DNA of 50,507 nt from Chitinophagales bacterium (lineage in GTDB: Bacteria; Bacteroidota; Bacteroidia; Chitinophagales; CAIOSU01). Made by a program: the position numbers and the translations under genes. This document shows, piece after piece, positions 5,623 through 22,376 of the stretch. The stretch lies in NCBI GenBank assembly GCA_041748615.1, contig JBGTCY010000259.1, forward strand, positions 1 through 50,507, in the 5' to 3' direction. Under the pieces are notes generated by a model. It ran no database searches. It saw only the letters and a list, made by a program, of their open reading frames with translations, and was not told the origin of the DNA. Every line of letters starts with the position of its first letter. Position 1 is the stretch's first letter.

Positions 5623-7260
5623 ATGCGCAATGAAAATTCTATATCATTGATTGCAGGTTGCATCATTTTATTTTCTCTCTGTTTTGTTTACCTGATAACG
5701 GCTGTGACTTTCATGTTCAATCAGCCGGTTACCCAATTTCATTTTCCGGCAGGTATTCTCATCGCATTTTTGGTAGTCAGTATTTTGTTCAATAACACCA
5801 TACAAATTGTTGCCGGAACACTGGTTGCGGTAGCCGCTTTTTTTCTTTCGTATTTTATTGCAACTCATACCATTGATATTTCATGGGATGGATTATGGTA
5901 TCATCAAAACGCGATTATCGCGACTGTCAAGGAAGGGGTAAATTTTTATCACACTAAATTTCCTGAAGGTGAAACCGGACTATATGTCAATCACTATCCT
6001 CCGGCAGCCTGGATTACGGGCTCAGCCATCTTCTGTTTTTTCGGTGATATTGAAATCGGAAAAATTGTACATCCGCTCTGGATTATTTCAGCAGCCTTTT
6101 TGGCGTGGAATTATTTCAGGAATGTGTTGCAGGTGTCAATCGCCTACTCATTCCTTGCCGGTATTTTAATTTCATTTAACCCCATTGCGCTCAATCAATA
6201 CAATTCGTTTTACATTGATGGGCAAATCGCATCTCAACTCACCTGTTTCATCTTGCTCGGATTAAGTTATCACAGTACAGGCAGGTCCTTGTTTCTTATT
6301 GCAGGTTTTCCGCTCGTCATTCTGATGTTCAATATGAAATTTACCGTGACTGCTTACATTGTGATTTTCATTGTTGCCGTCAGTACAATCCTCCTGTTTT
6401 CACTTAACTGGACAAGATTCAGGAAATATCTTCTTGTGCATACATTTTCGTTATGTATCGGAGCTTTCATTTTTGGATTTCAGCCTTATGTCAATAATTT
6501 TCTGCATCACGAACATGTTTTTTATCCGCTTGCCGGAATACATAAAATTGATATGATGACCGGTCAATACCATTATCCGAAACATCTGATTGGAAAGTCA
6601 AATTTGGAAAAATATGTCACCGGATTTATTTCATTTACCCGTCATACCGAACAGCATTATGCGTCAAAAGGACCTTTGGTGTTTAAGGAAAATGAATATT
6701 ATGCTACCAGCGGAATTCAGTGGCTGATTGGAGGAATGGGTCCGCTCTTCAGCGGAATAATGTCGCTCTCAGTTTTCATTTTTATAGTTAGTCGTTTTTT
6801 AATTGACGAAAAAAAACTATGGAATTTTTGCTTCTTGCTTTCCTTGTTTATTTTGATTTCTGTAATTATCAATCCAGAAAACTGGAGCGCGCGCTATGTT
6901 CCGCAGCAATGGTTGATACCATTTTTATTAATTCTACCATCGTTTGCCGTTTCAACTTTATTTATTCAACTGCTCAGGCTATTCGTTTTTGTAGCGATGC
7001 TGATCAACAGCGGCATGTTCCTGACTACTTCGATAGTTTTTAATCAACAAAGAGATTTTAGGGTGATTCAAAATAACCTGAAGGAAGGCTATCAGCAGTA
7101 TCCTGAAGCAATCATGTATGCGGGGTATTTTGACAGGAGTATGCATGAATGGTTCAAACGGGAAGGAATCAAAACATGGGATATCTCATCAGATAATTTT
7201 CACGAGCAATGTGAAAATCCATTACACATCATGAAAAATATTTACGTGTGTCCGAAATGA
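5623..7260 (+). CDS. polytopic membrane protein, probable GT-C-fold glycosyltransferase
   Basis: Many TM segments; acidic loop motif DISWDGLWYH, YIDG, KFT, WSARY. Confidence 0.6.
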   Translation: MRNENSISLIAGCIILFSLCFVYLITAVTFMFNQPVTQFHFPAGILIAFLVVSILFNNTIQIVAGTLVAVAAFFLSYFIATHTIDISWDGLWYHQNAIIATVKEGVNFYHTKFPEGETGLYVNHYPPAAWITGSAIFCFFGDIEIGKIVHPLWIISAAFLAWNYFRNVLQVSIAYSFLAGILISFNPIALNQYNSFYIDGQIASQLTCFILLGLSYHSTGRSLFLIAGFPLVILMFNMKFTVTAYIVIFIVAVSTILLFSLNWTRFRKYLLVHTFSLCIGAFIFGFQPYVNNFLHHEHVFYPLAGIHKIDMMTGQYHYPKHLIGKSNLEKYVTGFISFTRHTEQHYASKGPLVFKENEYYATSGIQWLIGGMGPLFSGIMSLSVFIFIVSRFLIDEKKLWNFCFLLSLFILISVIINPENWSARYVPQQWLIPFLLILPSFAVSTLFIQLLRLFVFVAMLINSGMFLTTSIVFNQQRDFRVIQNNLKEGYQQYPEAIMYAGYFDRSMHEWFKREGIKTWDISSDNFHEQCENPLHIMKNIYVCPK

Positions 7261-7863: not shown

Positions 7864-9666
7864 TTATTGAAATGATTCTATTTTCAGATTATCAATCATG
7901 ATGCTTTGAGTTCCGTCTGCATTCCAAAATTTAACTTTCACTGTATTTATTTTTTTAATGGGAAGTTTTACATCGAGATAGATATTTTTCAGTTCTCCAT
8001 TGTTGAGCAGGCGATGCACCCGTATCAATTTTGACTTGACTTCTTTCTCATCATTTGACAGGGTGACGATGAATTGTGTCATTTTCCAAACGTCCCATTC
8101 TTTCAGGATACAATGAAAATCCGCAGATACACGAATCCACTTTTGCTCATTTTTTTCAAACGGAATGATGTATGCCGGACTCCATTGCCGGACTTCATTC
8201 AGACACAGGGATTTTTCACCTTCAATAGGAAGTGCATTACAACCCGTGTGAACCGTATCTTTTTCAAAATCATTCTTATAAATCAGTTCAACATTTTTTC
8301 TTTCACCGCAAAATGATTCATCCGTATCCAAAAGTTTGAGAACATTTTCTTCAGGTTGATATCTACCAAGCGTATTCCAGAAATAAGCTTTGGTCATGTG
8401 ACCAGCGTGCAATAAACCTCCCCTGTGCGCCTGATGGGTCAGCCATAAATTATAATAAATGAAAATCACGATTAAAACATAAATAAAATATTTTATGATT
8501 TTTTTGTGCTCAATCCAGGATATCCACGCACATAACGGGAAAGCAAGGATGGCATAACTCTGAACCATCGCGCGCTGACCAAGACTGCCTCCGTACCACC
8601 AGATGTTCCATGCAAAGGCGATATAGATGAAGATTGATGTAAAGAGTGCAAACGACCAGAATAATTTTTCTTTCATCAGAAACAACGGTAAGAATCCAAG
8701 AAGCGCAAATAACATTGCCGGAGAATAAATCAACCATCCCGACCTGTAACTGAATAGTCCATTCAGCAAATGAGGCTTAAACCAACTAAACCCCTGGTCT
8801 TGATAACTATAAACCAACCACTCGCCTGATACATATTTCCAGTAGGATAATTGCAAACTCCCAACCACTAAAATGGTGAATAGCGCAGAAAAAAATTCTT
8901 TTTTGTGATTCCGGAAAAAGGAAATTCTATCTAAAAGATTCTTCCTGAGCGGCATGGAAATTCCCCAAAATGCCGGTATCAATATGGAGATGATTTCAGT
9001 TGGACGCGTGATGGCTGCCAATCCGACTAACATGCCGATTCCCACGGCTTTTATGACAGATGGAGTTCGATAAAATGAAATCGTAATAAAAATCAACAAA
9101 CTGTAAATAGTGAATAAATAATTGTGCGTCATTGCTCCATTGATAGCGGAATAATCAAGGTAATTACTCGCAAAAACGATAGTTAACATGGAAACAGAGA
9201 CAGCAGTGTCGGAAAAAAAATGCAGTAAGTTTTTTCGCAGAAAAAACAAACCTATAAACGCGATGAACAAACTCCCGATACTTATCATAAATTGATATGG
9301 GCGTGAAAATCCGTCTGCTTCGGCATCACTGTTAATGGCGTAAAGGTGAGCCATGCTGAAAAACGGCAAATACTGTATTGCCTGCCCGACAGGATATTTC
9401 ATCACGTAATTACCGCTTTCGTGTAAAAATGCCTGATCGAAACCCGGAGCCGGGTGATACTTGCTGATTATATCTTCACCGAATTCAAGTTTTTTTAAGT
9501 CTTTATAAATGAAAATTGCGGGTAGATATAGATAATAACCGGAAACATCCCAACTAATAGTAGCTTCCGTTCTGTCCATTTTCCATTTTGGATAATAGAA
9601 AAATGAAACCAGCGATAGGAAAACATAACTGCCGAGAAGTGCAAGAAGCGAATATTTATTTTTCAC
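7864..9666 (-). CDS. polytopic membrane protein, probable GT-C-fold glycosyltransferase with soluble C-terminal domain
   Basis: ISWDVSGYYLYLP, KYPVG, RPT, WWYGGSLGQR motifs; many TM helices. Confidence 0.62.
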   Translation of the reverse strand: MKNKYSLLALLGSYVFLSLVSFFYYPKWKMDRTEATISWDVSGYYLYLPAIFIYKDLKKLEFGEDIISKYHPAPGFDQAFLHESGNYVMKYPVGQAIQYLPFFSMAHLYAINSDAEADGFSRPYQFMISIGSLFIAFIGLFFLRKNLLHFFSDTAVSVSMLTIVFASNYLDYSAINGAMTHNYLFTIYSLLIFITISFYRTPSVIKAVGIGMLVGLAAITRPTEIISILIPAFWGISMPLRKNLLDRISFFRNHKKEFFSALFTILVVGSLQLSYWKYVSGEWLVYSYQDQGFSWFKPHLLNGLFSYRSGWLIYSPAMLFALLGFLPLFLMKEKLFWSFALFTSIFIYIAFAWNIWWYGGSLGQRAMVQSYAILAFPLCAWISWIEHKKIIKYFIYVLIVIFIYYNLWLTHQAHRGGLLHAGHMTKAYFWNTLGRYQPEENVLKLLDTDESFCGERKNVELIYKNDFEKDTVHTGCNALPIEGEKSLCLNEVRQWSPAYIIPFEKNEQKWIRVSADFHCILKEWDVWKMTQFIVTLSNDEKEVKSKLIRVHRLLNNGELKNIYLDVKLPIKKINTVKVKFWNADGTQSIMIDNLKIESFQ

Positions 9667-9681
9667 GGTAATCTTTCATAA

Positions 9682-12600
9682 TCAAAACGCCCTCCCCACG
9701 CCTACTACCCACCTGAACTGAAAATGGTCAGGCGACACTGCCGGGGTGTGGCTGAGGAACAGCGGCATGTCGAAGCGGAGCGTCAATGGTTTTAGTTTTT
9801 CAAACGGCTCGAATTTTTTAATCGTGAGCGCAACGCCTGCGCCCGCATCGGTGCGGAAATTGGAAATCGCTTCGCTAATCGTGTTAATCCCTTTGTTGTA
9901 AACGATGAAACCGCCATCGGCAAACAGATACACATCGAGGTGCAGGTAGTTGCTGAGTTTTTTCGGTTTCCAGTTCACCAAGCCGTCCAAATCCAACTCG
10001 GCATTGAACGAGCCGCCCGAACTGCCGCGGTATGCCGTGAACGCCTGTCCACCGCTTTCTTCCACCAATAAATAACCCGCGTAGCCGCGCACATTCAGCC
10101 CGCCACCGTGATGAAAATGATTGACGTCATTCCCGAAACCGCCCACCCATGCAGGCGGGAAATACCCTACCGAGCGGGTGAAAACATTCTCCATCATCTC
10201 CTCCGGACTGGCTTGCGCGAAAAACAGTGCGCTTTCGGGCGCGGGGTTCGAGCCGGTGCCATACCTGCCATGCAGACGTGAGCGCAGTTCCAATTTCCAA
10301 AAACGGAAGCTGTTCGTGTGTGTCGCCTGCAAATAATGATAATCAAAATCGCTGGCGATCCCGTTGCTGCGAAGCGTGAGGTTGAACGTGCCGTCAGCAT
10401 TAGTCTTTTTGTAGCGGTGGTTCATTTCCACATTCACCGTGTTGTTGATTTCATTCGCGCCTCCCCACTCGCCCGGATACAGCAGATAATTCCGCTTGGC
10501 GTCACGCGGGCGGTTGAGCAGTTTCATGTATAAAATAATTTCGGTATTTTGTTTTTTGCCCACCCGCACATCAGCGCCTAATTTGTACGCCTCTAATCCT
10601 TCGAAATACAGTGCACTCACAAACACGTTGGAATTTCTGAGCAGTTTATCCATCGTGGTGCGATAATCGAAGCGGTAATTAATCGGGTCAAAATTTCTTG
10701 TTGTTTCCTGCGGAAAGCCGAACCGCTCCGCGCTGCCCCTGCCGAGCGTTGTGATGCCCCACACCGTGAGGCTAAAGCGGTGTTTATAGTTCAGATAATT
10801 ACCGTTGAGGTGCAAGCCGAGTTTGATGCCGTCATACGCGTTCCACCAGATTGCCGGTCGCCAGTACATGCGGTAATTTTTCCAGTCGGGATAATTCCAT
10901 ACCTGCGAGTCGAAGCGCAACTTCACTCTGCGCGGCTTCGAATTATCCGGCATATAGACGTCCGCGAGCCGCTCGCTCGGGTCAATCACTACACTTTTGA
11001 TTTTATCCGGCAGCGCCACAGTCGCGGTGTAAACCGGATGCAGTTTATCCCACCCGTGCCATTTCGGAAGCACTGTCGCGCTCGTCTCTTTCAAAAACCA
11101 TTGATTGGGAATATGAAAATACAGACTGTCATTGCTTCTCGTAGTAATCAAAATATCAAGCGGCATTTGCATGCGACCTTTTCGCTTAAAAGTAATCGTG
11201 TAGATATGGGAGTTTTCAGTTGTAGTCTCTAAGTCGCGGGTCAAATAGTCGCGAGTCAAAGTGATTTGGGATTTTTCACTATTAGCAATAAAAGTATTTT
11301 CATCCATGACATTCCCCGACCCGCGACCCGCGACTAATTGACTTTCGACTATCTGACCCGTGACCGTTTGACCTTCGACCAAACCTCCCCCGTCCCCTGT
11401 CCCCTGCCCCTTGTCCCTTGTCCCTCCCTCGCCACTCGTCCCCCGTCCCTCGTCCCTACTTATCCGTTGCCTCAACGCCCCATCTTTCACCCTTCTCACT
11501 CTGCCAATCCTGTAATCCACATTCTTCATCGTCTCCAACCACTGGTCGAAAAACCAATTCAAATCCACTTTGGTGAATTGAATGAATGCGTTGCGGAAAT
11601 CTTCGGGATAGGGATGCGCGAATTTCCACCGGTCATAAAAATGCAACATCGCTTGCGTGAACAGGCTGTCGCCCAGCACATATTGCAAGTTGTACAACAT
11701 CACGGAAGTTTTGCTATACACATGCCGGTAGCCGCCACCCTGCCGGAGTGCGCCATGAAAACCATCGGAGTGCGTATTGAGAAAAGCATCTTCACCGGTC
11801 ACCGCGTCTGACAGATACCCCCAATAGGAAGTTGTTGTTCTTGCATCTACCGGCTCGCGGAATTTCCGCTTGTAGCGGTTTTTCGGAATAGCAATACGCC
11901 TGTCATATTTACCTTCGAGTGCTTCAAGCGCCCAGGCAGTGAGGAACTGTGTCAGGCCCTCGTCCATCCATGCGCGATACGTTTCGTTTGTACCGATGAT
12001 GCCGTAAAACCAGTTGTGCCCGACCTCGTGTGCTATCAGCCCGTGGTTGGATGGTTCCAAGCCTCCGCACAGCGTGAGCATCGGATATTCCATGCCATCC
12101 CGCGCGTCCGCCACTACCATTTTGTGATAGCCGTACATGCCGAAATCATTTGAAAAAAGTTCAACACATTGTGCGGTAAACTCCGCCACCGTCTGCCAGC
12201 GTGATGCATGTGGTTCTTGCACGAGCGCGATGCACTGAATGCCGTTCCACTCCGTTTCCCCGATACGATAGTGCGGGTTGGCGGTGAACGCAAAGTTGTG
12301 GACGTTCTCTGCATAGAAATGCCACTTCTTGCGCTCACCGGGGATATAGGGAATGATTTCACCGGGTGCGGAGTAGAGCGGTTTTTCACGGAAAAGTTTA
12401 ATGTCCAATTTTTCACGAAGCGTATCGGGCAACACCTCTTCGCGGTTTAAAAGATTGCCGGTGGCTTCCACGATGTAATTATTCGCAAACGTAAGCTCGA
12501 CATCAAACGTGCCGAAGTTGGCGTAAAACTCACGTCCGAGATGCTGGTCGGTTGTCCAGCCGAACTTGGCGTCATACACGCAGATAATCGGATACCAATG

Positions 12601-13203
12601 CACGCCATTGAATTGTTTTGCTCCATAGCTTGTAAAAGCCTTGTTGCGTCTGCGCACGTTGCCATCCAACTGGAAATACGTTTTGAACTCCACTTCGAAA
12701 AAAGTGGAAGCATTCGGCAGCAACGGTTTATTCAGCTTAACACGGAAAACCGTGTTGTCCAACTCAATTTCCATATCTTCTCCTTCATGCCTGAATGATT
12801 GAATAGTGGTTCCAAATCCTTGTTTTTCGTAATGACCGTACTCCACTTTCACCTGATTATTTTTTTGCAGGTTATCCAAATAAGAGCCGGGCTGATAGGC
12901 GTTTTCATACAAATGAAAAAACACCTCATAGAGCGTATCAGGTGAATTGTTCCAATAAGTGAGTTTCTGGCTGCCGGTGATAATGTCCGTCAACTCATCC
13001 ACATCCGCTTTGATTTCATAATGCACATCTTGTTGCCAGTAGCCGGGATGCGGGAGTTTGTTTTTCCAATAAAAAGGATTGTCCGCATTGCGGAAGGTAT
13101 TAGGGGGCGATTGAGGGTTGTAGCTTGTCTGTCCCTGACCAATACTGAAACCAAAAGATAAAATGAAGCAAATAAAGATTTTGAAAACGGTTGATGATGT
13201 CAT
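9682..13203 (-). CDS. M1-family zinc aminopeptidase with C-terminal Omp85-like beta-barrel
   Basis: Signal peptide after ATG 13203; YWQQ, GMEYP, HEVGH-X18-E (WMDEG); C-terminal region has VRGY, FADGG and a terminal Phe. Confidence 0.88.
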   Translation of the reverse strand: MTSSTVFKIFICFILSFGFSIGQGQTSYNPQSPPNTFRNADNPFYWKNKLPHPGYWQQDVHYEIKADVDELTDIITGSQKLTYWNNSPDTLYEVFFHLYENAYQPGSYLDNLQKNNQVKVEYGHYEKQGFGTTIQSFRHEGEDMEIELDNTVFRVKLNKPLLPNASTFFEVEFKTYFQLDGNVRRRNKAFTSYGAKQFNGVHWYPIICVYDAKFGWTTDQHLGREFYANFGTFDVELTFANNYIVEATGNLLNREEVLPDTLREKLDIKLFREKPLYSAPGEIIPYIPGERKKWHFYAENVHNFAFTANPHYRIGETEWNGIQCIALVQEPHASRWQTVAEFTAQCVELFSNDFGMYGYHKMVVADARDGMEYPMLTLCGGLEPSNHGLIAHEVGHNWFYGIIGTNETYRAWMDEGLTQFLTAWALEALEGKYDRRIAIPKNRYKRKFREPVDARTTTSYWGYLSDAVTGEDAFLNTHSDGFHGALRQGGGYRHVYSKTSVMLYNLQYVLGDSLFTQAMLHFYDRWKFAHPYPEDFRNAFIQFTKVDLNWFFDQWLETMKNVDYRIGRVRRVKDGALRQRISRDEGRGTSGEGGTRDKGQGTGDGGGLVEGQTVTGQIVESQLVAGRGSGNVMDENTFIANSEKSQITLTRDYLTRDLETTTENSHIYTITFKRKGRMQMPLDILITTRSNDSLYFHIPNQWFLKETSATVLPKWHGWDKLHPVYTATVALPDKIKSVVIDPSERLADVYMPDNSKPRRVKLRFDSQVWNYPDWKNYRMYWRPAIWWNAYDGIKLGLHLNGNYLNYKHRFSLTVWGITTLGRGSAERFGFPQETTRNFDPINYRFDYRTTMDKLLRNSNVFVSALYFEGLEAYKLGADVRVGKKQNTEIILYMKLLNRPRDAKRNYLLYPGEWGGANEINNTVNVEMNHRYKKTNADGTFNLTLRSNGIASDFDYHYLQATHTNSFRFWKLELRSRLHGRYGTGSNPAPESALFFAQASPEEMMENVFTRSVGYFPPAWVGGFGNDVNHFHHGGGLNVRGYAGYLLVEESGGQAFTAYRGSSGGSFNAELDLDGLVNWKPKKLSNYLHLDVYLFADGGFIVYNKGINTISEAISNFRTDAGAGVALTIKKFEPFEKLKPLTLRFDMPLFLSHTPAVSPDHFQFRWVVGVGRAF
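11232..11457. repeat. composite short-repeat array inside the M1 peptidase CDS
   Basis: AGTCGCGGGTCAAAT-like x2 (11232-11260); inverted YGAC-based 7/8-bp units (11317-11381); YGTCCCY heptamers (11391-11457). Confidence 0.85.
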
Positions 13204-13424
13204 TTTGAATAAATACAGTTTGTTATCGCAATAAATATGGTATAAAATTTTGCAGTTACATCTGCAATAGAAGATTACTGCTGAATTGCAAAGTAACAAT
13301 AATTCAATTTTTAAACTAAATCCGGAAGCAGATTCGCTTTTTTAAAAGATGTCAAAGGTGCAGTGAAATCAAATAGAATTGAGGAAGGATTCCACTTTAT
13401 AAAGTAAGCTTCGCCTAAAAAGTA

Positions 13425-15515: not shown

Positions 15516-17447
15516 ATGCAACAGGACGAACAACCCTTCATCAGCCCTTCAACCATCCTGCCTGAAACGACAGTAAAAGCCCTGATTCTTGGCTTTATTC
15601 TTTCAGCGGTGCTTGCCGCTGCCAATGCCTATCTCGGATTGCTGCTGGGAATGACCGTTTCCGCATCTATCCCTGCTGCGGTGATTTCGATGGCGGTGTT
15701 AAAACTTTTTCGCAAAAACAATATCCTTGAAAATAATATCGTGCAAACTGCAGCCTCCTCTGGCGAGTCGCTGGCGGCAGGTGTGATTTTTACTTTACCC
15801 GCATTGGTGTTGATGAATTACTGGGCGGATTTTAATTATTGGGAAACCACCGCCATCGCGCTGACGGGCGGATTACTCGGAGTACTCTTTACCATTCCAT
15901 TGCGCAAGGCATTAATCGTTCGTGAAAAACTGAAATTTCCGGAAGGGGTGGCGACAGCCGAAGTTTTAAAAGCCGGCAATAACGGCAGCGCTTTGTTAAA
16001 ATATCTCATCACCGGTTCATTACTTGGCGGGGGAATCAAACTCATCGTGGAAGGGTTGCAGTTGTGGCAGTCGAAATTTCATGCTGGAGTCATTCTGAAC
16101 GGGAAAGCATTTCTCTACTTCGGCACTTATCTCACACCTGCGGTGGTTGCAGTTGGATACATCGTGGGGTTGAATATTGCCGTACTCGTTTTTCTTGGCG
16201 GGGCTATCAGTTGGTATGGCGCAATTCCCGGATACATCGCGCTGAACGGAGCGCCTGAAGGTTTAACCGCCACTCAAGCCGGATTGCAAATCTGGAGCAC
16301 CAAAGTGCGCTACCTTGGTGTAGGGGCGATGATAGTAGGCGGTTTATGGGCGATTTTCAGCATCCGTCAATCATTGGGCAGCGCGATGAAGCAGGGATTG
16401 GAAGCATTCAAAAAAGCAAAAGATTCAACAAAAACTTTACGAACGGAATATGATACTCCGATGTCATGGGTGCTGATAGGTATCGGAATTTTATTGGTGC
16501 CGGTTTTCATCATCTACCTGCGTGAAGTGCAGTCTGTGGCGCTTTCTTCTTTAATGACGGTGTTGATGGTGATTGCGGGTTTTCTTTTTTCCGCGGTGGC
16601 GGGATACATGGCGGGCTTGGTAGGCAGTTCCAATAACCCGATTTCTGGCGTAACGATTGCCACCATTCTCACTTCCGCTTTGATACTTGCCGCTTTGCTC
16701 GGTACTGATTCGCCTGTGGGCGCGGCATCCGCCATTATGATTGGCTCGGTAGTATGTTGCGCTGCTGCGATTTCAGGCGATGTGATGCAAGACCTAAAAG
16801 CAGGTCATATTCTGGGCGCTACTCCCGCGCGTCAGCAAGTGATGGAAGTGGTGGGAGTTACAGCAGGCGCTTTGGTGATGGCTCCCGTGCTCACACTGCT
16901 AAACAACGCTTATCAAATTGGTTCTGAAAAATTATCCGCTCCGCAAGCATCTCTCATGCGCAGCGTTGCGGAAGGCGTGTTTGGAGGAAACCTTCCGTGG
17001 AACATTATTTCCATCGGAGCGCTCATTGGAGTTATCGTGATTGTTTGCGATTTGATTTTGCAGAAAAGAAATTCTTCCTTCCGGATGCCGGTACTGGCAG
17101 TTGCGGTGGGAATGTATTTGCCACTTTATCTTGATACCGCAATTTTCATTGGGGGCATTATCGCTTGGTTAGTCAGCAGGTTTTACAAAAAAAATGAAAA
17201 CAATCCCCGTCATTTAGAAGCTAAACAATCAGCCGAAAATGCAGGATTGTTGTTTGCCTCCGGATTAATCACCGGGGAAGCATTGCTTGGTATTTTTCTC
17301 GCCATTCCGATTGCCGTAAGTGGGAATGATAAAGTATTAAAAGTTTTTGATTATGAATTTCCTTCGGTGATGGGATTAGCGGTATTGTTCGGATGTTGTC
17401 TGCTGCTTTACAATGCGGTGAAAAAAGGCTATCACAAAGCCGGATAA
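15516..17447 (+). CDS. OPT-family oligopeptide transporter
   Basis: NAYLGL..GMTVSASIPAAVIS, ENNIVQT, FPEG, GSSNNPISG, QDLKAG, APQA, ASGLITGE. Confidence 0.95.
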   Translation: MQQDEQPFISPSTILPETTVKALILGFILSAVLAAANAYLGLLLGMTVSASIPAAVISMAVLKLFRKNNILENNIVQTAASSGESLAAGVIFTLPALVLMNYWADFNYWETTAIALTGGLLGVLFTIPLRKALIVREKLKFPEGVATAEVLKAGNNGSALLKYLITGSLLGGGIKLIVEGLQLWQSKFHAGVILNGKAFLYFGTYLTPAVVAVGYIVGLNIAVLVFLGGAISWYGAIPGYIALNGAPEGLTATQAGLQIWSTKVRYLGVGAMIVGGLWAIFSIRQSLGSAMKQGLEAFKKAKDSTKTLRTEYDTPMSWVLIGIGILLVPVFIIYLREVQSVALSSLMTVLMVIAGFLFSAVAGYMAGLVGSSNNPISGVTIATILTSALILAALLGTDSPVGAASAIMIGSVVCCAAAISGDVMQDLKAGHILGATPARQQVMEVVGVTAGALVMAPVLTLLNNAYQIGSEKLSAPQASLMRSVAEGVFGGNLPWNIISIGALIGVIVIVCDLILQKRNSSFRMPVLAVAVGMYLPLYLDTAIFIGGIIAWLVSRFYKKNENNPRHLEAKQSAENAGLLFASGLITGEALLGIFLAIPIAVSGNDKVLKVFDYEFPSVMGLAVLFGCCLLLYNAVKKGYHKAG

Positions 17448-17566
17448 GGCAATAATACAGTATAACTTTCTTAAAAAATCTAAAATCTAACATCTGATTT
17501 CTGATAATAATACATAAGTTTAAAATGTTATTTTGACAACATTACTAAGTGCAAGAATTATTATAA

Positions 17567-17745
17567 TATCATGATTGCTTAAACTGGCACGGTTATAATC
17601 TCATAGATTGCCAATTGCATGAATTTGTGGACATCTGGAAAGACATCAAAACCGCTCCTTCCATCAAAGACAAAATTCGCTATCTCTATAAACCTCCCGG
17701 ATGGAAACATGATGGAAGCGGGATGACAGTGGCTGACATGAGAAT
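17567..17745 (+). pseudogene. orphan C-terminal remnant of a sterol desaturase/fatty acid hydroxylase family gene
   Basis: GYN...HEFVDIWKDIKTAPSIKDKIRYLYKPPGWKHDGS resembles this family's C-terminal tail; in-frame TAA at 17564 upstream and no His boxes. Confidence 0.6.
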
Positions 17746-17756
17746 CGGGGGAAACC

Positions 17757-19052
17757 TCAACTCTTCAACCTCGGGTCCAGCGCATCGGTCAAGCCTTCAC
17801 CTAAAAGATTGAATACCGTGACGGTGATGAAAATCGCGAAGCCGGGGAAGATGGCAAGCCACCAGGCTTCGGGTGCCTGACGAGCGATGGAGAGCAGCTT
17901 GCCCCACGTCATCACTTCCGCTTGCACGCCAATGCCGAGAAACGACAGCGCAGACTCGGTGAGAATAGCGCCCGCCACACCGAAAGCAATGCTAATCAGC
18001 ACGGGCGTGATAGAGTTGGGGATTGCATGACGGAAAATAATCCTCCATTCGGGATAGCCGAGTGCTTGTGTCGCTTCGATATATTCAAGGCTGCGCACAC
18101 GCAGGAGTTCGCCCCGGATAAACCGCGCGATGGACATCCAGGCGGTCATGCCGATGACAACCATTACAAGCATGATGGATGGTTTCGCAATTGCTACAAC
18201 TGACAGAATGAGCAGCAGTGTGGGAATGGAAATAAAAATTTCGATGATGCGCGAAATAATGATGTCCACAGGCACGGCAACCCGTTGACCCAACCACGGC
18301 AGTTTTTTCATCGGGATGGCTAAAATATTCGGGATTGCCATGAAGGCGATAAAGAGAAACATGCTGACATGTAACTGCACCACGAAACTGAACATGCTTT
18401 CTTCAAACGCGTCCGCCAATGTGTAGTTGCGCACGCTGAAGGCGTAGAAAAAAGCCAGAAAAATAAACAGCAGGTTGAGAATAATTCTGCCGCGCGTTAC
18501 TTTCAGCCGCTGGTCGCCAAAATAACCGGCTAATGAACCCAACAAAATTCCAATGAGCGAGGCGATGGACATGGACACCACACCCACCAGCATGGCGATA
18601 CGCGTGCCATGTATCATCCCAGAAAGCACATCGCGCCCGATTTCATCCGTGCCCATGAAGTGCAGCCATCGCCACGAAGGCACATCCTGTTTGTCAAACG
18701 GACCTTTGTACTGCACATTATTAATATCCATCTCGGTGGGCGAATAGGGAATGAGGGGCCAAATCACCGCGTCATATTTCACTTCTTTCCAGTCGGTTAC
18801 GTTGCGCAGTTCGGTGTGCCATTTGCCGATACCCGCGTCCACCATGTAGCGTTTCACAATCGGAAAATATGTCTTGCCATCTATTTTGCAATACACCGGT
18901 TTTTCATTCGCGAGAAAATCAGCAAACAACCCGATGAAAATCACCACGTAAATCATCCGCAGCGACCACACCGCGAGTTTGTTTTTCCGGAACTGCCTTT
19001 TGACAATCGCCCAATAACCCTGGTCAGCCTGTTGTTTGGTTGCTTGCGTCAT
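17757..19052 (-). CDS. peptide ABC transporter permease (OppC/DppC-like)
   Basis: HFMGTDEIGRDV, ARFIRGE..RVRSLEYIEA, HAIPNS, FNLLGEGLTDALDPR. Confidence 0.93.
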   Translation of the reverse strand: MTQATKQQADQGYWAIVKRQFRKNKLAVWSLRMIYVVIFIGLFADFLANEKPVYCKIDGKTYFPIVKRYMVDAGIGKWHTELRNVTDWKEVKYDAVIWPLIPYSPTEMDINNVQYKGPFDKQDVPSWRWLHFMGTDEIGRDVLSGMIHGTRIAMLVGVVSMSIASLIGILLGSLAGYFGDQRLKVTRGRIILNLLFIFLAFFYAFSVRNYTLADAFEESMFSFVVQLHVSMFLFIAFMAIPNILAIPMKKLPWLGQRVAVPVDIIISRIIEIFISIPTLLLILSVVAIAKPSIMLVMVVIGMTAWMSIARFIRGELLRVRSLEYIEATQALGYPEWRIIFRHAIPNSITPVLISIAFGVAGAILTESALSFLGIGVQAEVMTWGKLLSIARQAPEAWWLAIFPGFAIFITVTVFNLLGEGLTDALDPRLKS

Positions 19053-19058
19053 ATCCGG

Positions 19059-20549
19059 TCAGCGGGTCTTTTTTGTGAATGAAATACGCGGGTCCACTAA
19101 GGCATACAGCAGGTCAGACACCAAAATGCCGAGCATCGTGAGGATGGCGGAAAACATCAGCACCGTGTAAAGCACCGGATAGTTTCGCGCCACCACACTT
19201 TCGTAACTCACCTTGCCCATGCCGGGAATGCTGAAAATAATTTCAATAATCAACGCGCCACTTATCATCGCGGGAAACAATCCGGCAAACATGGTGATAA
19301 TCGGGATGAGCGAATTTCTGAATGCATGTTTCCAGGTGACGGTTTTGTTGTCCAACCCTTTGGCGCGTGCGGTGCGGATATAATCCTGGCGGATAACGGT
19401 TAACATGCCGCCCCGCATTTGCCGGGAAATAAAAGCAAATGAACCATACACAATACAAAACACCGGTAGAACAAGATGATAAGCAAGGTCGCCTATCCGC
19501 TCGAAGAAAGAGGCGTCAGATGAAAGATGCTGCGAATGCACTCCATGGGTGGGAAACCAATTCATGCCATATTCACTGTTGGTGAAAAAGATAATCAGCA
19601 TCGTGGCTATCCAAAAGGAGGGCAATGAATAAAGAATAAAAAGTGTGGTGGTGGTAAATCGGTCGAACACCGTGTCTTTGCGGATGGCGGTTTCCACGCC
19701 AATCGGAATGGAAACAAGATACGCGATGATAATCGCGATGATGTTGATGAGCATCGTATAGCCCACCGCGTCCCACAGGATGGATGAAACCGGGCGACCG
19801 TCTAAGTAGGACACACCGAAATCAGCGCGAAAAAAACCACGCGCCTGCTTGCGCGGGTCATCATTTTCGCCAATCCACGGCACATCGCCAAACAGCCAGC
19901 GGTGATATTGATTGTGCGTGCCATAGAAATGAAATGCCGGAATATATTTTTTGCCGGGCGTTGCCTGACTTTGCATCAGGGCGTATTTTTCTTTCACCGC
20001 TTTGGCATATGGTTGTGCGGAAGCGAGGGAGTTGACGTTCACCGCTTCTTCAATCACTCCAATCAGCCGCTGAATGGTGATGTCGTCATATTTAGTATAA
20101 AGTTCATTACATGTTTCCCGGATTTGCCTCACGCGGGCGAAATTGGAAGTGTCAGTCTGCATGTCAAACAAAGAAAATTCCAATTGCTTCACGCTGTGAT
20201 AATAATCGGAAATCTGCTGCCAGTTGCCATATTCATTCACCAAACGGCTGAGGTTTTCGCGCTCTTTTTTGCGGGGTATTTTATAAAGCGTGTCGGGAGA
20301 TGCTTTTGAGGTGATTTCAAAATAAAAAGCCGGCAGGTTCAGTCCCATGCGCTCGCTCAAATCCAAATAGGCTTTTTCTCCGGCTAACTTTTCGGTGAGC
20401 TGCCCGCCCGCCTGACTTTGCATACCGCCCTGTAAACGCAATTCCACAGGGTCGCCTGGCGCTACTTTGCTGAGAAAAAAAGTAATCAGCGAAATCGCGA
20501 ACAGCGTGGGAATAAAATACAGGATGCGCTTGAGGATGTACTGAAACAT
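19059..20549 (-). CDS. peptide ABC transporter permease (OppB/DppB-like)
   Basis: YILKR, APGDP, DFGVSY, QDYIRTARAKGL, KHAFRNS, DLLYALVDPRI. Confidence 0.93.
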   Translation of the reverse strand: MFQYILKRILYFIPTLFAISLITFFLSKVAPGDPVELRLQGGMQSQAGGQLTEKLAGEKAYLDLSERMGLNLPAFYFEITSKASPDTLYKIPRKKERENLSRLVNEYGNWQQISDYYHSVKQLEFSLFDMQTDTSNFARVRQIRETCNELYTKYDDITIQRLIGVIEEAVNVNSLASAQPYAKAVKEKYALMQSQATPGKKYIPAFHFYGTHNQYHRWLFGDVPWIGENDDPRKQARGFFRADFGVSYLDGRPVSSILWDAVGYTMLINIIAIIIAYLVSIPIGVETAIRKDTVFDRFTTTTLFILYSLPSFWIATMLIIFFTNSEYGMNWFPTHGVHSQHLSSDASFFERIGDLAYHLVLPVFCIVYGSFAFISRQMRGGMLTVIRQDYIRTARAKGLDNKTVTWKHAFRNSLIPIITMFAGLFPAMISGALIIEIIFSIPGMGKVSYESVVARNYPVLYTVLMFSAILTMLGILVSDLLYALVDPRISFTKKTR

Positions 20550-20567
20550 GTCTGTTTTTTTCCCGGA

Positions 20568-22376
20568 TTATGGCATTTTCGCTTCGACTTTCACACCGAA
20601 ATCAGGGTTCAGTTTAAATTCTTCCACCATATACCCGGGGCGATACACATAGCTGTTGGCTTCAAAGCGTTTGTGAATGGCGATTTTCGAAAGCGGAGTC
20701 AGCATGAAAATATAAGGCACTTCATCGTGCATGATTTCCTGGATTTTAAAATACATCTGGTCGCGTTTTTCCACATCATTCTCATAGCGGATTTTGTCAA
20801 TCAAATCATCGGTTTCCTGATTGCCGAAGCCTACATAATTGCTGCCGCCATTATAGGAAGTAGTGTGCCAGATTTGTTTCAAATCCGCCAGGGTGGGAGC
20901 AGCGCTCCAGCCGCTTTGCATCATTTCAAAATCATGCGCTTTGGTCTGGTCAATGAATACCGTCCATTCTTTCTGCACGATTTCCATCTTGCCGCCAATA
21001 CGCTCGATATTTTTCCTGAAAATCAACGCTAATTTTTCCCCCACCGGATTGTCAGATGGCATCAGCAATTCCAAACGTAAAGGTGTCTTCACCCCGTTAA
21101 TTTCTTTGTCGCGAACGCCATCTCCATCCGTATCTATCCACCCTGCTTCATCAAGCAATGCCTGCGCTCTCGTCAAATCATAGGGATAGGGTTTGATATT
21201 TTTGTTGTAATAAGGCTGCGAAGGATGTATCGGTCCGACAGTGCGGTCGGCAAGACCATAATACAATACATCAATCACCTGTTCCACATCCATCGCATAA
21301 GCCAATGCCTGTCTCACCCTTTTATCGGAGAGTTTGCTGTTGCGCATGTTTAAGCCGATATAGAGATAGGCAAGCTGCATGGGAGTATGTAAATTATATT
21401 TTCCAAGAAAACGCTCGTCTTTTTCGAGGTCTTTAAAATCTTTCGAGGGAATGCCGCGCATCACATCCAATCCCTCGTCTTTCAGCGCGGTCAGCGCGGT
21501 GCGGTCGCTGGTGATAATTTCAAAGATGAGGCGGTCGGGATAATTTTCAAAACCGCGAACTTTCCCTGTGAATTGTTCACCCCACCAGTTTTTTGTTTTT
21601 TTCAAAATCAACCGCTGACCGGTTTTCCAGTCATCAAATTCATACGCGCCACAACCCACCACAAAACCTCTTTCACGTTGATATTTCTGCGCATTGAAAT
21701 TTTCAGCAAAACGGATAATATCAGCATCACCTTTCAACCTTTCAGCCTCCTCTTGGTTGCTCAATTGCTTCACGGTGAATTTGCGCATGAGGCGTTCGGG
21801 GTCATAAATGTATTCGGGAACAGGGGTCACCGCGCTCCAGATTTCAGCCATGAAATAACGGTCGTTACAAAAGAAAGTGAATTTTTTAGGGTCACTTTCA
21901 TCAATCGTCATGTCGCCAATAAATTCATAATAGGAACGGAGGTGCGCAGCATCCGATTGAGGATTTTTGATTGCCTTTAAAGAAAACTCCACATCATGAG
22001 CCGTTACAGGCGAGCCATCGGGCCAAACCGCCTCGGTTCTGATACGATAAGTGATTGTTAATCCGCCCGTAAAATCGCCCTCATTTACTTCTTCAATTTC
22101 GGGACGCGCTTCCGCCAAAATCGGCAGGTAATCAAAAGGAGGTTCGGGATTGAGCGCTAATAAAGAGGGAAACAAGGTGCGTGTCACAATTCCGGAGTTG
22201 GCGCTCGTTGAGGTAATCGGGTTCATCTTGTCAAAATCCGCTGACTCATAGATAATAACTTCATTGATGCCTGCGCGCTTGCTTGTGCCGTCACCGGAGC
22301 CGCCCGTGCAGGAAACCAGCAATCCCAGGATGATGATGAACGGAATAAACTTTTTCAGGTTCGATGTGTTGTTCAT
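20568..22376 (-). CDS. peptide ABC transporter substrate-binding lipoprotein (family 5, OppA-like)
   Basis: Lipobox LVSC; WPDGSPVTAHDV, VGCGAY, DKRVRQAL, LLDEAGW.DTDGDG. Confidence 0.92.
   Translation of the reverse strand: MNNTSNLKKFIPFIIILGLLVSCTGGSGDGTSKRAGINEVIIYESADFDKMNPITSTSANSGIVTRTLFPSLLALNPEPPFDYLPILAEARPEIEEVNEGDFTGGLTITYRIRTEAVWPDGSPVTAHDVEFSLKAIKNPQSDAAHLRSYYEFIGDMTIDESDPKKFTFFCNDRYFMAEIWSAVTPVPEYIYDPERLMRKFTVKQLSNQEEAERLKGDADIIRFAENFNAQKYQRERGFVVGCGAYEFDDWKTGQRLILKKTKNWWGEQFTGKVRGFENYPDRLIFEIITSDRTALTALKDEGLDVMRGIPSKDFKDLEKDERFLGKYNLHTPMQLAYLYIGLNMRNSKLSDKRVRQALAYAMDVEQVIDVLYYGLADRTVGPIHPSQPYYNKNIKPYPYDLTRAQALLDEAGWIDTDGDGVRDKEINGVKTPLRLELLMPSDNPVGEKLALIFRKNIERIGGKMEIVQKEWTVFIDQTKAHDFEMMQSGWSAAPTLADLKQIWHTTSYNGGSNYVGFGNQETDDLIDKIRYENDVEKRDQMYFKIQEIMHDEVPYIFMLTPLSKIAIHKRFEANSYVYRPGYMVEEFKLNPDFGVKVEAKMP

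Follow-up and report, generated by a model that had tools for sequence, protein, structure and literature searches.

An M1 aminopeptidase joined to a cryptic, POTRA-less Omp85-type barrel in uncultured Bacteroidota: a predicted periplasmic peptidase tethered to the outer membrane

Why should a zinc aminopeptidase be made as one polypeptide with an outer-membrane β-barrel? The question is raised by a gene on the minus strand of contig JBGTCY010000259.1 from a Chitinophagales bacterium (assembly GCA_041748615.1), the 50,507 nucleotides of which constitute the window analysed here. The coding sequence occupies 9682..13203 (start ATG at 13203, stop codon 9682-9684) within an open reading frame (ORF) of 9682..13299 and specifies 1173 amino acids (aa); all features of the gene described below lie on the same strand and are numbered on the whole window. 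A first-pass annotation had described an M1 aminopeptidase followed by a barrel with Omp85 hallmarks, and had proposed an exopeptidase anchored by, exported through or fed by its own barrel. Every motif that it named is indeed in the translation (GMEYP, HEVGH, WMDEG, SDFDY, GGGLNVRGY, GGSFNAEL, LFADGG, AGAGV, PLTLRFD and the terminal VGRAF). From the structural models and sequence comparisons presented here we conclude that the peptidase half is a three-domain M1 enzyme predicted to be catalytically competent, and that the C-terminus belongs to the Omp85 superfamily as a genuine but cryptic, POTRA-less member. We propose, with rather more confidence than doubt, that the protein would act as a periplasmic aminopeptidase which is tethered to the outer membrane and trims oligopeptides after their import, with a topology like that of PlpD.

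At the level of sequence the peptidase half resembles M1 aminopeptidases in its active-site region only. Peptidase_M1 (PF01433) is the sole Pfam family found in the protein, matching aa 386-555 (E 2e-12, 47.6 bits versus a gathering cut-off of 27.7), and NCBIfam and PDB sequence searches also match just the active-site region, that of LTA4H-like enzymes. HMMER alignments with the cold-active aminopeptidase 3cia and with LTA4H pair DGMEYP with GGMENP, HEVGH with HELAH and WMDEG with WLNEG. The corresponding elements are GMEYP at aa 370-374 (12082-12096), HEVGH at aa 392-396 (12016-12030) and WMDEG at aa 412-416, which supplies the zinc-ligand Glu415 (codon 11959-11961). Residues G370, M371, E372, H392, E393, H396, E415, Y492 and Y496 are invariant in an alignment of 90 sequences; both the Glu of the GxMEN motif and a Tyr downstream of the zinc site have functional roles in M1 enzymes.

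The model of the full-length protein made with AlphaFold2 (AF2) extends the resemblance well beyond the active site. Its mean predicted local distance difference test score (pLDDT) is 87.4 and its predicted template-modelling score (pTM) 0.84, by which the M1 module and the barrel appear to be placed confidently relative to each other. DSSP delimits an N-terminal beta domain (domain I) at about aa 55-329 (12217..13041), and structural alignments by VIA to the tricorn-interacting factor F3, IRAP, LTA4H and PepN begin at model residue 53-58; the thermolysin-like catalytic domain (domain II), identified by PF01433, follows at about aa 330-562 (11518..12216). The closest superposition is with F3 (Z 29.1, root-mean-square deviation (rmsd) 2.9 Å, 465 residues), followed by IRAP (Z 28.0, 483 residues), a two-domain M1 protein of Deinococcus radiodurans (Z 26.9, 389 of its approximately 430 residues) and LTA4H (Z 26.6), and the whole M1 set, which includes ERAP1 and PepN, spans Z 29.1-25.9. 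Four-domain M1 structures align over 465-488 residues as compared with the 389 of the two-domain protein. The catalytic helices end near aa 557, and what lies beyond them is all-beta: a strand at 564-571, and then a stretch at 666-764 made of strands 666-674, 682-688, 693-698, 724-731, 735-740 and 760-764 with a single 4-residue helix. This predicted sandwich (aa 654-770, 10894..11244, plus strand 564-571) lies where other M1 enzymes have domain III. The helical domain IV is missing, as there is no ERAP1_C match in Pfam and the model leaves no room for such a domain.

Because the fold matches, the intact motifs and an all-beta domain at the position of domain III go together, we take the module to be an M1 enzyme comprising domains I-III, and the first-pass description of it as intact agrees with PF01433, the catalytic motifs and the M1 structural matches. 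Assignment to the family follows from the PF01433 score above the gathering cut-off, the HExxH-x18-E zinc site and the N-terminal beta and thermolysin-like folds. With other M1 aminopeptidases the protein shares these two domains, the zinc site and the Glu of GxMEN; it differs in having GMEY for GxMEN, in lacking the helical domain IV and in continuing after domain III into a barrel.

The barrel (aa 771-1173, 9685..10893) was also modelled separately, as aa 740-1173 from an alignment of 89 homologues (pLDDT 90.4, pTM 0.87), and DSSP of the two AF2 models assigns 16 predicted strands between aa 777 and 1169. The top 50 PDB matches of Foldseek are BamA or TamA throughout (E 7.6e-10 to 2e-8, TM-score 0.40-0.49). 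In an exhaustive VIA alignment against 48,161 representative chains, ranks 1-18 are taken by Omp85-superfamily chains only (Z 20.2-15.3), and the next fold, that of OccD porins, appears at Z 12.8, lower by at least 2.5 Z units. The best of these matches is D. radiodurans BamA (Z 20.2, 297 residues, rmsd 4.1); the others include Sam50 (19.9), TamA (18.7), the BamA proteins of F. johnsoniae and B. thetaiotaomicron, FhaC, Toc75 and CdiB (15.3). Sequence identity to these solved Omp85 structures is just 11-14%, and PDB searches, conducted with the single protein and with a profile, gave no Omp85 protein at E ≤ 10 by profile. The search with an Omp85 hidden Markov model (HMM) that the first-pass annotation had suggested as a check came out negative at E ≤ 1, and at the level of sequence the link was found only by profile-profile alignment with hhalign. 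This aligned 88 barrels of the family with 35 PF01103-positive barrels of Bacteroidota over 307 columns at 92.4% probability (E 5.3e-7), with GGxxxRGY, NxE, FxDxG, GxG, RxD and the terminal aromatic residue of the two profiles in register. When only the five Omp85 paralogues of the same genome served as template the match was weak (21% probability, E 0.001, 100 columns), so the larger template was needed. The nearest ESM Atlas cluster is named 'surface antigen (D15)' (score 0.97).

The conserved positions of the barrel fall where an Omp85 protein would have them. Loop 6, which connects strands 11 and 12 (aa 987-1061, 75 aa, 10021..10245), is its best-conserved stretch, with invariant residues that include S991, E1001, R1010, G1034, R1039 and Y1041, the last two belonging to VRGY (aa 1038-1041, 10081-10092) in GGGLNVRGY. 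The NAEL of strand 12 and the strand 13 region follow at 9910..9999, with the codon of Glu1069 at 9997-9999 and YLFADGG of strand 13 at aa 1092-1098 (9910-9930). Invariant residues of the barrel in the 90-sequence alignment are R1039, Y1041, E1069, Y1092, F1094, D1096 and the C-terminal F1173 (9685-9687), which closes it. In BamA structures the Arg of loop 6 pairs with a Glu on strand 12 and with the Asp of FxDxG on strand 13, and by analogy E1069 and D1096 are the expected partners of R1039. The barrel is thus like those of BamA, TamA and Sam50 in its 16 strands, its long loop 6 with (V/L)RG(Y/F), its strand-12 Glu, its strand-13 FxDxG and its terminal aromatic residue, but it is only remotely similar to them in sequence, lacks POTRA domains, is not universal and carries its own signature, RPxxWWNxxDGxKxG, at strands 1-2.

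No POTRA domain was matched in Pfam at E ≤ 1, and the model gives the 200 residues leading up to strand 1 as either all-beta or disordered; by this model the sandwich that precedes the barrel is not a POTRA domain. Features of other type V systems were also sought: there is no autotransporter match in Pfam (E ≤ 1), no helix before strand 1 and a strand number of 16 rather than the 12 of type Va autotransporters, and, as regards type Vd, the 1173-aa protein has no Pfam match to patatin or POTRA. Because the model, the structure searches, the profile-profile match and the invariant motifs all agree, we assign the C-terminus to the Omp85 superfamily; the barrel of about 400 aa without POTRA domains, with VRGY in loop 6 and FxDxG on strand 13, that had been predicted from the letters alone is what AF2 and Foldseek returned.

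A first alternative is that the fusion is an artefact of misassembly, of read-through between two genes or of motifs that resemble those of Omp85 by chance. The genome is a draft of 330 contigs, and this copy of the gene holds a repeat-derived insert that is bridged only by the probable source run. The insert, a Gly-rich, disordered and in-frame stretch of about 78 aa (aa 588-653, 11245..11442; pLDDT 25-38) situated in a loop of the sandwich that resembles domain III, lies outside the conserved architecture, being absent from the homologue consensus and present in the source copy alone. Its DNA consists of G-rich direct repeats of the GGGAC type followed by inverted repeats of 26-27 nt; fragments of it are found at 15 further sites in the genome, and in unrelated metagenome contigs the G-rich portion accumulates, flanked on either side by loose ends. 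Contigs of metagenome runs X2-X4 cover parts of the gene but none spans 11221-11336; the insert is bridged by run X1 alone, possibly the run from which the window derives. By appearance the insert is a short dispersed repeat that has come to lie in a loop able to tolerate it.

The fusion itself recurs, and it is this recurrence that refutes the artefact explanation. A relative is encoded in at least 240 species-representative genomes, the best 80 of which, on which the per-locus counts given here are based, are almost all metagenome-assembled genomes (MAGs) of uncultured Bacteroidota labelled Chitinophagales, Flavobacteriales or Bacteroidia. A full-length ORF (992-1222 aa, median 1073) is present at 71 of these 80 loci, and the full-length orthologues keep HExxH-x18-E (71/71), GME[YFN] (71/71), [VILM]RG[YF] (71/71) and [FYL]xDxG (69/71), so the motif set is not a matter of chance. 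The remaining loci are cut by contig ends, split over two ORFs (L039) or encode the barrel only (L024). In a database search with the barrel as query, 723 proteins were found at E ≤ 1e-3, and all 120 of the matches listed are 914-1222 aa long, contain PF01433 and cover the barrel to 100%; the names among them are 'M1 family metallopeptidase', 'aminopeptidase N' and 'hypothetical protein', none of which points to a membrane barrel. A search of 1.84 billion representatives at 50% identity gave 339 relatives at E ≤ 1e-3, of which 226 pass 1e-10 and 109 pass 1e-30, and the listed matches end within 8 residues of the protein C-terminus except for fragments and a handful that stop earlier. With a single ORF in so many copies, and with structural and profile evidence that concur, we give the artefact explanation practically no credence.

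Three of the related loci call for separate comment. At L039 the fusion lies in two ORFs of 782 aa and 355 aa (L039:442-3835), by a frameshift or a real split. The end of locus L009 holds the start of a second member of the family (L009:14773-17280). The gene at L065 comes from a MAG labelled Azovibrio (Pseudomonadota) but nests among copies from Chitinophagaceae, and the contig may be mis-binned.

On which side of the outer membrane would the peptidase lie? In outer-membrane proteins the side with short turns is usually periplasmic, and in the full model the connections between strands, summed from DSSP, amount to 158 residues on the side of loop 6 and to 45 on the opposite side. Strand 1 begins on the short-turn side, and its N-terminus is therefore predicted to be periplasmic. 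Furthermore, the link from the last strand of the M1 module, a folded unit of about 750 aa, to strand 1 of the barrel is just some 12 residues long, so that the peptidase should sit at the periplasmic mouth. The protein starts with a putative signal peptide, read from its own sequence and the N-termini of homologues (about aa 1-23, MTSSTVFKIFICFILSFGFSIGQ..., 13135..13203; helix 4-20 in the model); this hydrophobic N-terminus aligns with the signal peptides of homologues, whose N-termini are comparably hydrophobic. Cys12 within it is too near the N-terminus for a lipobox look and has no counterpart in the homologue consensus.

These considerations bear on a type Vd-like autotransport or surface display, in which the barrel would export the M1 module to act outside the cell. 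The order of enzyme and then barrel is that of PlpD and of the original type Vd model, and Bacteroidota do use cell-surface peptidases, but a compact folded module of such size would need to cross a lumen occupied by loop 6, there is neither a POTRA domain nor a linker long enough to span the barrel, the side facing the M1 module is the one with short turns, and one genome (L024) keeps the barrel without any passenger. Moreover, according to the accessible text of Hanson et al. (PMC11116518), experiments place the enzyme domain of PlpD in the periplasm and call the type Vd secretion model into question. We consider surface export very unlikely. Of the three roles for the barrel offered in the first-pass annotation, anchoring has therefore survived as the best reading, while export through the barrel and feeding by it are not supported, given the periplasmic start of strand 1, the short link and the periplasmic enzyme of PlpD reported in the part of PMC11116518 just cited.

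A related possibility is that peptides enter through the barrel lumen and are met by an M1 module that caps its periplasmic mouth, the barrel taking the place of domain IV as a lid. The barrel does stand at the sequence position of M1 domain IV, the link between domain III and strand 1 is short, the pTM of 0.84 implies a fixed arrangement, and the Omp85 translocators FhaC and CdiB are among the structural matches (Z 18.3-15.3). The best matches, however, are insertases and not translocators, and the conserved 75-residue loop 6 bears the RGY lock, by which in BamA and TamA the lumen is filled and closed beneath an extracellular dome; the accessible text of Heinz and Lithgow (PMC4104836) likewise describes these barrels as fully closed to the outside. 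Such a channel-coupled peptidase seems to us distinctly unlikely, if a little less so than export to the surface.

The barrel of this family can exist without an enzyme. In a sample of 301 Bacteroidota genomes barrels also turned up as stand-alone proteins (392-455 aa) that share 22-31% identity with that of the window over its whole length, mainly in two families of the phylum (32 of 49 and 4 of 4 sampled genomes). They were found by genome search at L116-L121, L126 and L127 (e.g. L117:5957-7135, L121:6150-7340 and L119:5839-7119); an earlier search for shorter homologues, which gave 78 matches that were mostly ORFs cut by contig ends, had missed them. Those with a visible N-terminus (e.g. 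L119 and L120) have signal peptides of their own, and they have in common the signatures PDxWYNxxDG, GGxNLRGY, NxE, YLFxD, ADAGxG and RYDxPxWLS, with no match in Pfam or NCBIfam. Their neighbours are housekeeping genes (GreA, NUDIX, AckA/Pta), and L126 comprises two tandem copies.

A barrel-only form also occurs among the close relatives. The gene at L024:7857-9182 (+) encodes 441 aa including a separate signal peptide, shares 44% identity with the barrel of the window and occupies the small-gene/NadC/YihY synteny where other genomes have the M1-barrel fusion. A quick tree places it inside the fused clade (74 rows, support of 100 in the Shimodaira-Hasegawa-like approximate likelihood ratio test, SH-aLRT), although SH-aLRT support is no more than 91 and 89 at the inner nodes with L024, which itself stands on a long branch (1.22); this suggests, but does not prove, a secondary loss of the peptidase. 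In addition, there is a diverged M1 subfamily of about 980-1007 aa (L122:4420-7443, L123:5667-8618 and L124:4113-7055), which matches PF01433 and has about 32% identity over the M1 part, and whose C-terminal ~380 aa keep the first barrel strands but have a degenerate loop-6 RGY and FxDxG. As there are barrel-only relatives and loop 6 is so well conserved, the barrel probably has an activity of its own beyond anchoring.

Other Bacteroidota encode a different combination of peptidase and barrel, in which Peptidase_MA_2 is followed by a PD40/TolB-like propeller and a PF01103 Omp85 barrel (1053-1128 aa; L128:526-3687, L129:519-3770 and L130:410-3796, the Omp85 match being present in two of the three and absent from L130 at E ≤ 1e-3). 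Like the M1-barrel protein, these have a zincin peptidase N-terminal to an Omp85 barrel; they differ in peptidase family, in the additional beta-propeller and in being PF01103-positive in 2/3, and none was found in the source genome. This appears to be an independent fusion, so that joining of a zincin to an Omp85 barrel would have arisen more than once. To our knowledge this architecture has not been described, although no literature search was aimed at it. A further fusion, of Metallophos with Omp85/ShlB (1278 aa), is encoded at L131:635-4471.

These barrels are relevant to the possibility that the protein is a device for outer-membrane biogenesis or quality control, in which an Omp85 with some remaining insertase- or receptor-like activity captures substrates, for instance at its seam or in its lumen, and the attached peptidase degrades or processes them, a one-chain analogue of the β-barrel assembly machinery (BAM) with BepA; in a milder version the M1 module stands in for POTRA domains, serving a functional Omp85 as its accessory in the periplasm. 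The invariance of loop 6 and of the Arg-Glu-Asp set is what a working Omp85, and not an anchor, would be expected to show, barrels of the family are also found alone with the same motifs, and the second, independent zincin-Omp85 fusion points the same way. M1 enzymes, on the other hand, are exopeptidases whose buried sites take short peptides rather than unfolded proteins, a POTRA domain for substrate hand-over is lacking, partner genes are not conserved, and the rarity of the family rules out a core biogenesis factor: a full orthologue is present in only 2 of the 301 evenly sampled Bacteroidota genomes, the source genome and one of the same order, which makes the family widespread but patchy. 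The binding of BepA to BAM for quality control is described in the accessible parts of PMC13478230 and PMC13655028, and BepA, an M48 enzyme, is similar to the M1 module in being a zinc metallopeptidase at the periplasmic face of an Omp85 barrel; it is, however, a separate protein, an endoprotease and a member of another peptidase family, while the M1 link is covalent and its enzyme of the exopeptidase type. On balance we hold such a device to be unlikely, somewhat less so than the channel-coupled peptidase. In a bolder scheme, unlikely in our estimation, the barrel, with its loop-6 lock, its family-specific signature at strands 1-2 and its survival alone in other genomes, would be a working Omp85 that replaces domain IV of the M1 enzyme as lid of the catalytic chamber and captures or admits substrates, to be handed directly to the aminopeptidase, the whole being a one-chain machine whose substrates could be peptides from outside or the N-termini of mis-assembled envelope proteins. 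What likelihood is left falls to functions other than those named here.

Our preferred reading, a periplasmic aminopeptidase tethered to the outer membrane, entails the following course of events. The fusion protein would be exported by Sec, and BAM would insert the barrel into the outer membrane by means of a C-terminal aromatic signal, for which the invariant Phe is the candidate; a C-terminal aromatic residue is the beta-signal for BAM. The peptidase module would then stay docked at the periplasmic mouth of the barrel and trim N-terminal residues from oligopeptides that reach the periplasm, contributing to peptide nutrition, and the barrel, with its loop-6 lock and its barrel-only forms, would contribute more than passive anchoring.

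Several observations pull in the other direction. The localisation and activity of the protein are predictions from sequence and model, and the docking face of the M1 module and the orientation of its cleft rest on topology rules rather than on measured geometry. In the active site the Gly, Met and Glu of GxMEN are kept but the Asn is replaced by Tyr, and Y492 and Y496, situated 77-81 residues past E415, are candidates for the catalytic Tyr by conservation and spacing alone. Pfam and NCBIfam scans of the 1173-aa protein gave no match to any Omp85, ShlB or BamA/TamA model at E ≤ 1, Omp85 models matched none of 25 barrel-bearing members of the family at the same threshold, and in the 4.23-Mb genome PF01103 matches five other ORFs (386-795 aa) but not the M1-barrel gene. 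A pure anchor leaves unexplained why loop 6 is strongly conserved over its entire 75 residues and why barrel-only forms occur. Lastly, the genomic context lends no support to a role in peptide nutrition, as the OPT and Opp genes that lie nearby in the window are not conserved neighbours.

The genes in question are an OPT oligopeptide transporter (+), two Opp-type ABC permeases and a family-5 solute-binding protein (-), together spanning 15516-22376 at a distance of 2-9 kb from the peptidase gene. A peptide-uptake operon was considered and rejected: the 600-aa membrane protein, AccA, DUF6913, OPT and the Opp solute-binding protein are each found at 0 of the 80 related loci and the two Opp permeases at 1 of 80. 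As their proximity is not kept in relatives it is no evidence of function. More generally, no neighbouring gene is conserved, the commonest flanking family being present at 26 of the 80 loci. The 600-aa protein is encoded at 7864-9666 (-), 15 bp downstream of the M1-barrel gene and on the same strand; it appears by eye to be a multi-pass membrane protein and has no Pfam or NCBIfam family, and it is absent from all 80 related loci. Farther away, at 5623-7260 (+), a 545-aa ORF without a Pfam or NCBIfam family lies between a methyltransferase and a HAD hydrolase.

Among known systems the protein most resembles the patatin-POTRA-Omp85 proteins PlpD and FplA ('type Vd'), which also have a hydrolase N-terminal to a 16-strand Omp85 barrel on one polypeptide and an enzyme domain that is periplasmic, as demonstrated for PlpD in the accessible text of PMC11116518 and as expected here. 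It differs from them in having an M1 zinc peptidase in place of a patatin lipase, no POTRA domain, no helical linker and a barrel that is PF01103-negative. Enzyme fusions and POTRA-less barrels in Bacteroidota and other phyla also feature in the Omp85 census of Heinz and Lithgow (2014), the accessible text of which lists patatin, 'Metallo' (PF00149) and noNterm classes and accepts the POTRA-less 'noNterm' proteins as members of the superfamily (PMC4104836). The subfamilies of that census are defined by PF01103 matches, according to the same text, whereas the barrel of the M1-barrel family gives none, and a census on this basis could not have included it; 'peptidase' and 'aminopeptidase' do not occur in its main text, supplements aside. 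The first-pass annotation knew of no characterised M1-Omp85 fusion, and our full-text literature searches found no description of one either.

The view that every Omp85 protein serves the assembly or translocation of other proteins prevailed until recently. PlpD established that an Omp85 scaffold can bear a periplasmic enzyme, and the M1-barrel family would be a peptidase version of this arrangement that dispenses with POTRA domains, adding to the known enzyme-Omp85 fusions on what appears to be a previously unrecognised Omp85 subfamily. If the protein were, instead, the one-chain machine considered above, it would match BAM-BepA in covalent form and constitute a novel functional class of Omp85 proteins. 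The family poses two questions, namely what purpose an Omp85 barrel serves when it has no POTRA domains and how an M1 enzyme manages in the absence of domain IV, and the gene at L024, as a natural barrel-only derivative, may be used for comparison. As the subfamily, both fused and stand-alone, is unseen by current domain models, surveys that rely on PF01103 would undercount the diversity of Omp85 proteins in Bacteroidota.

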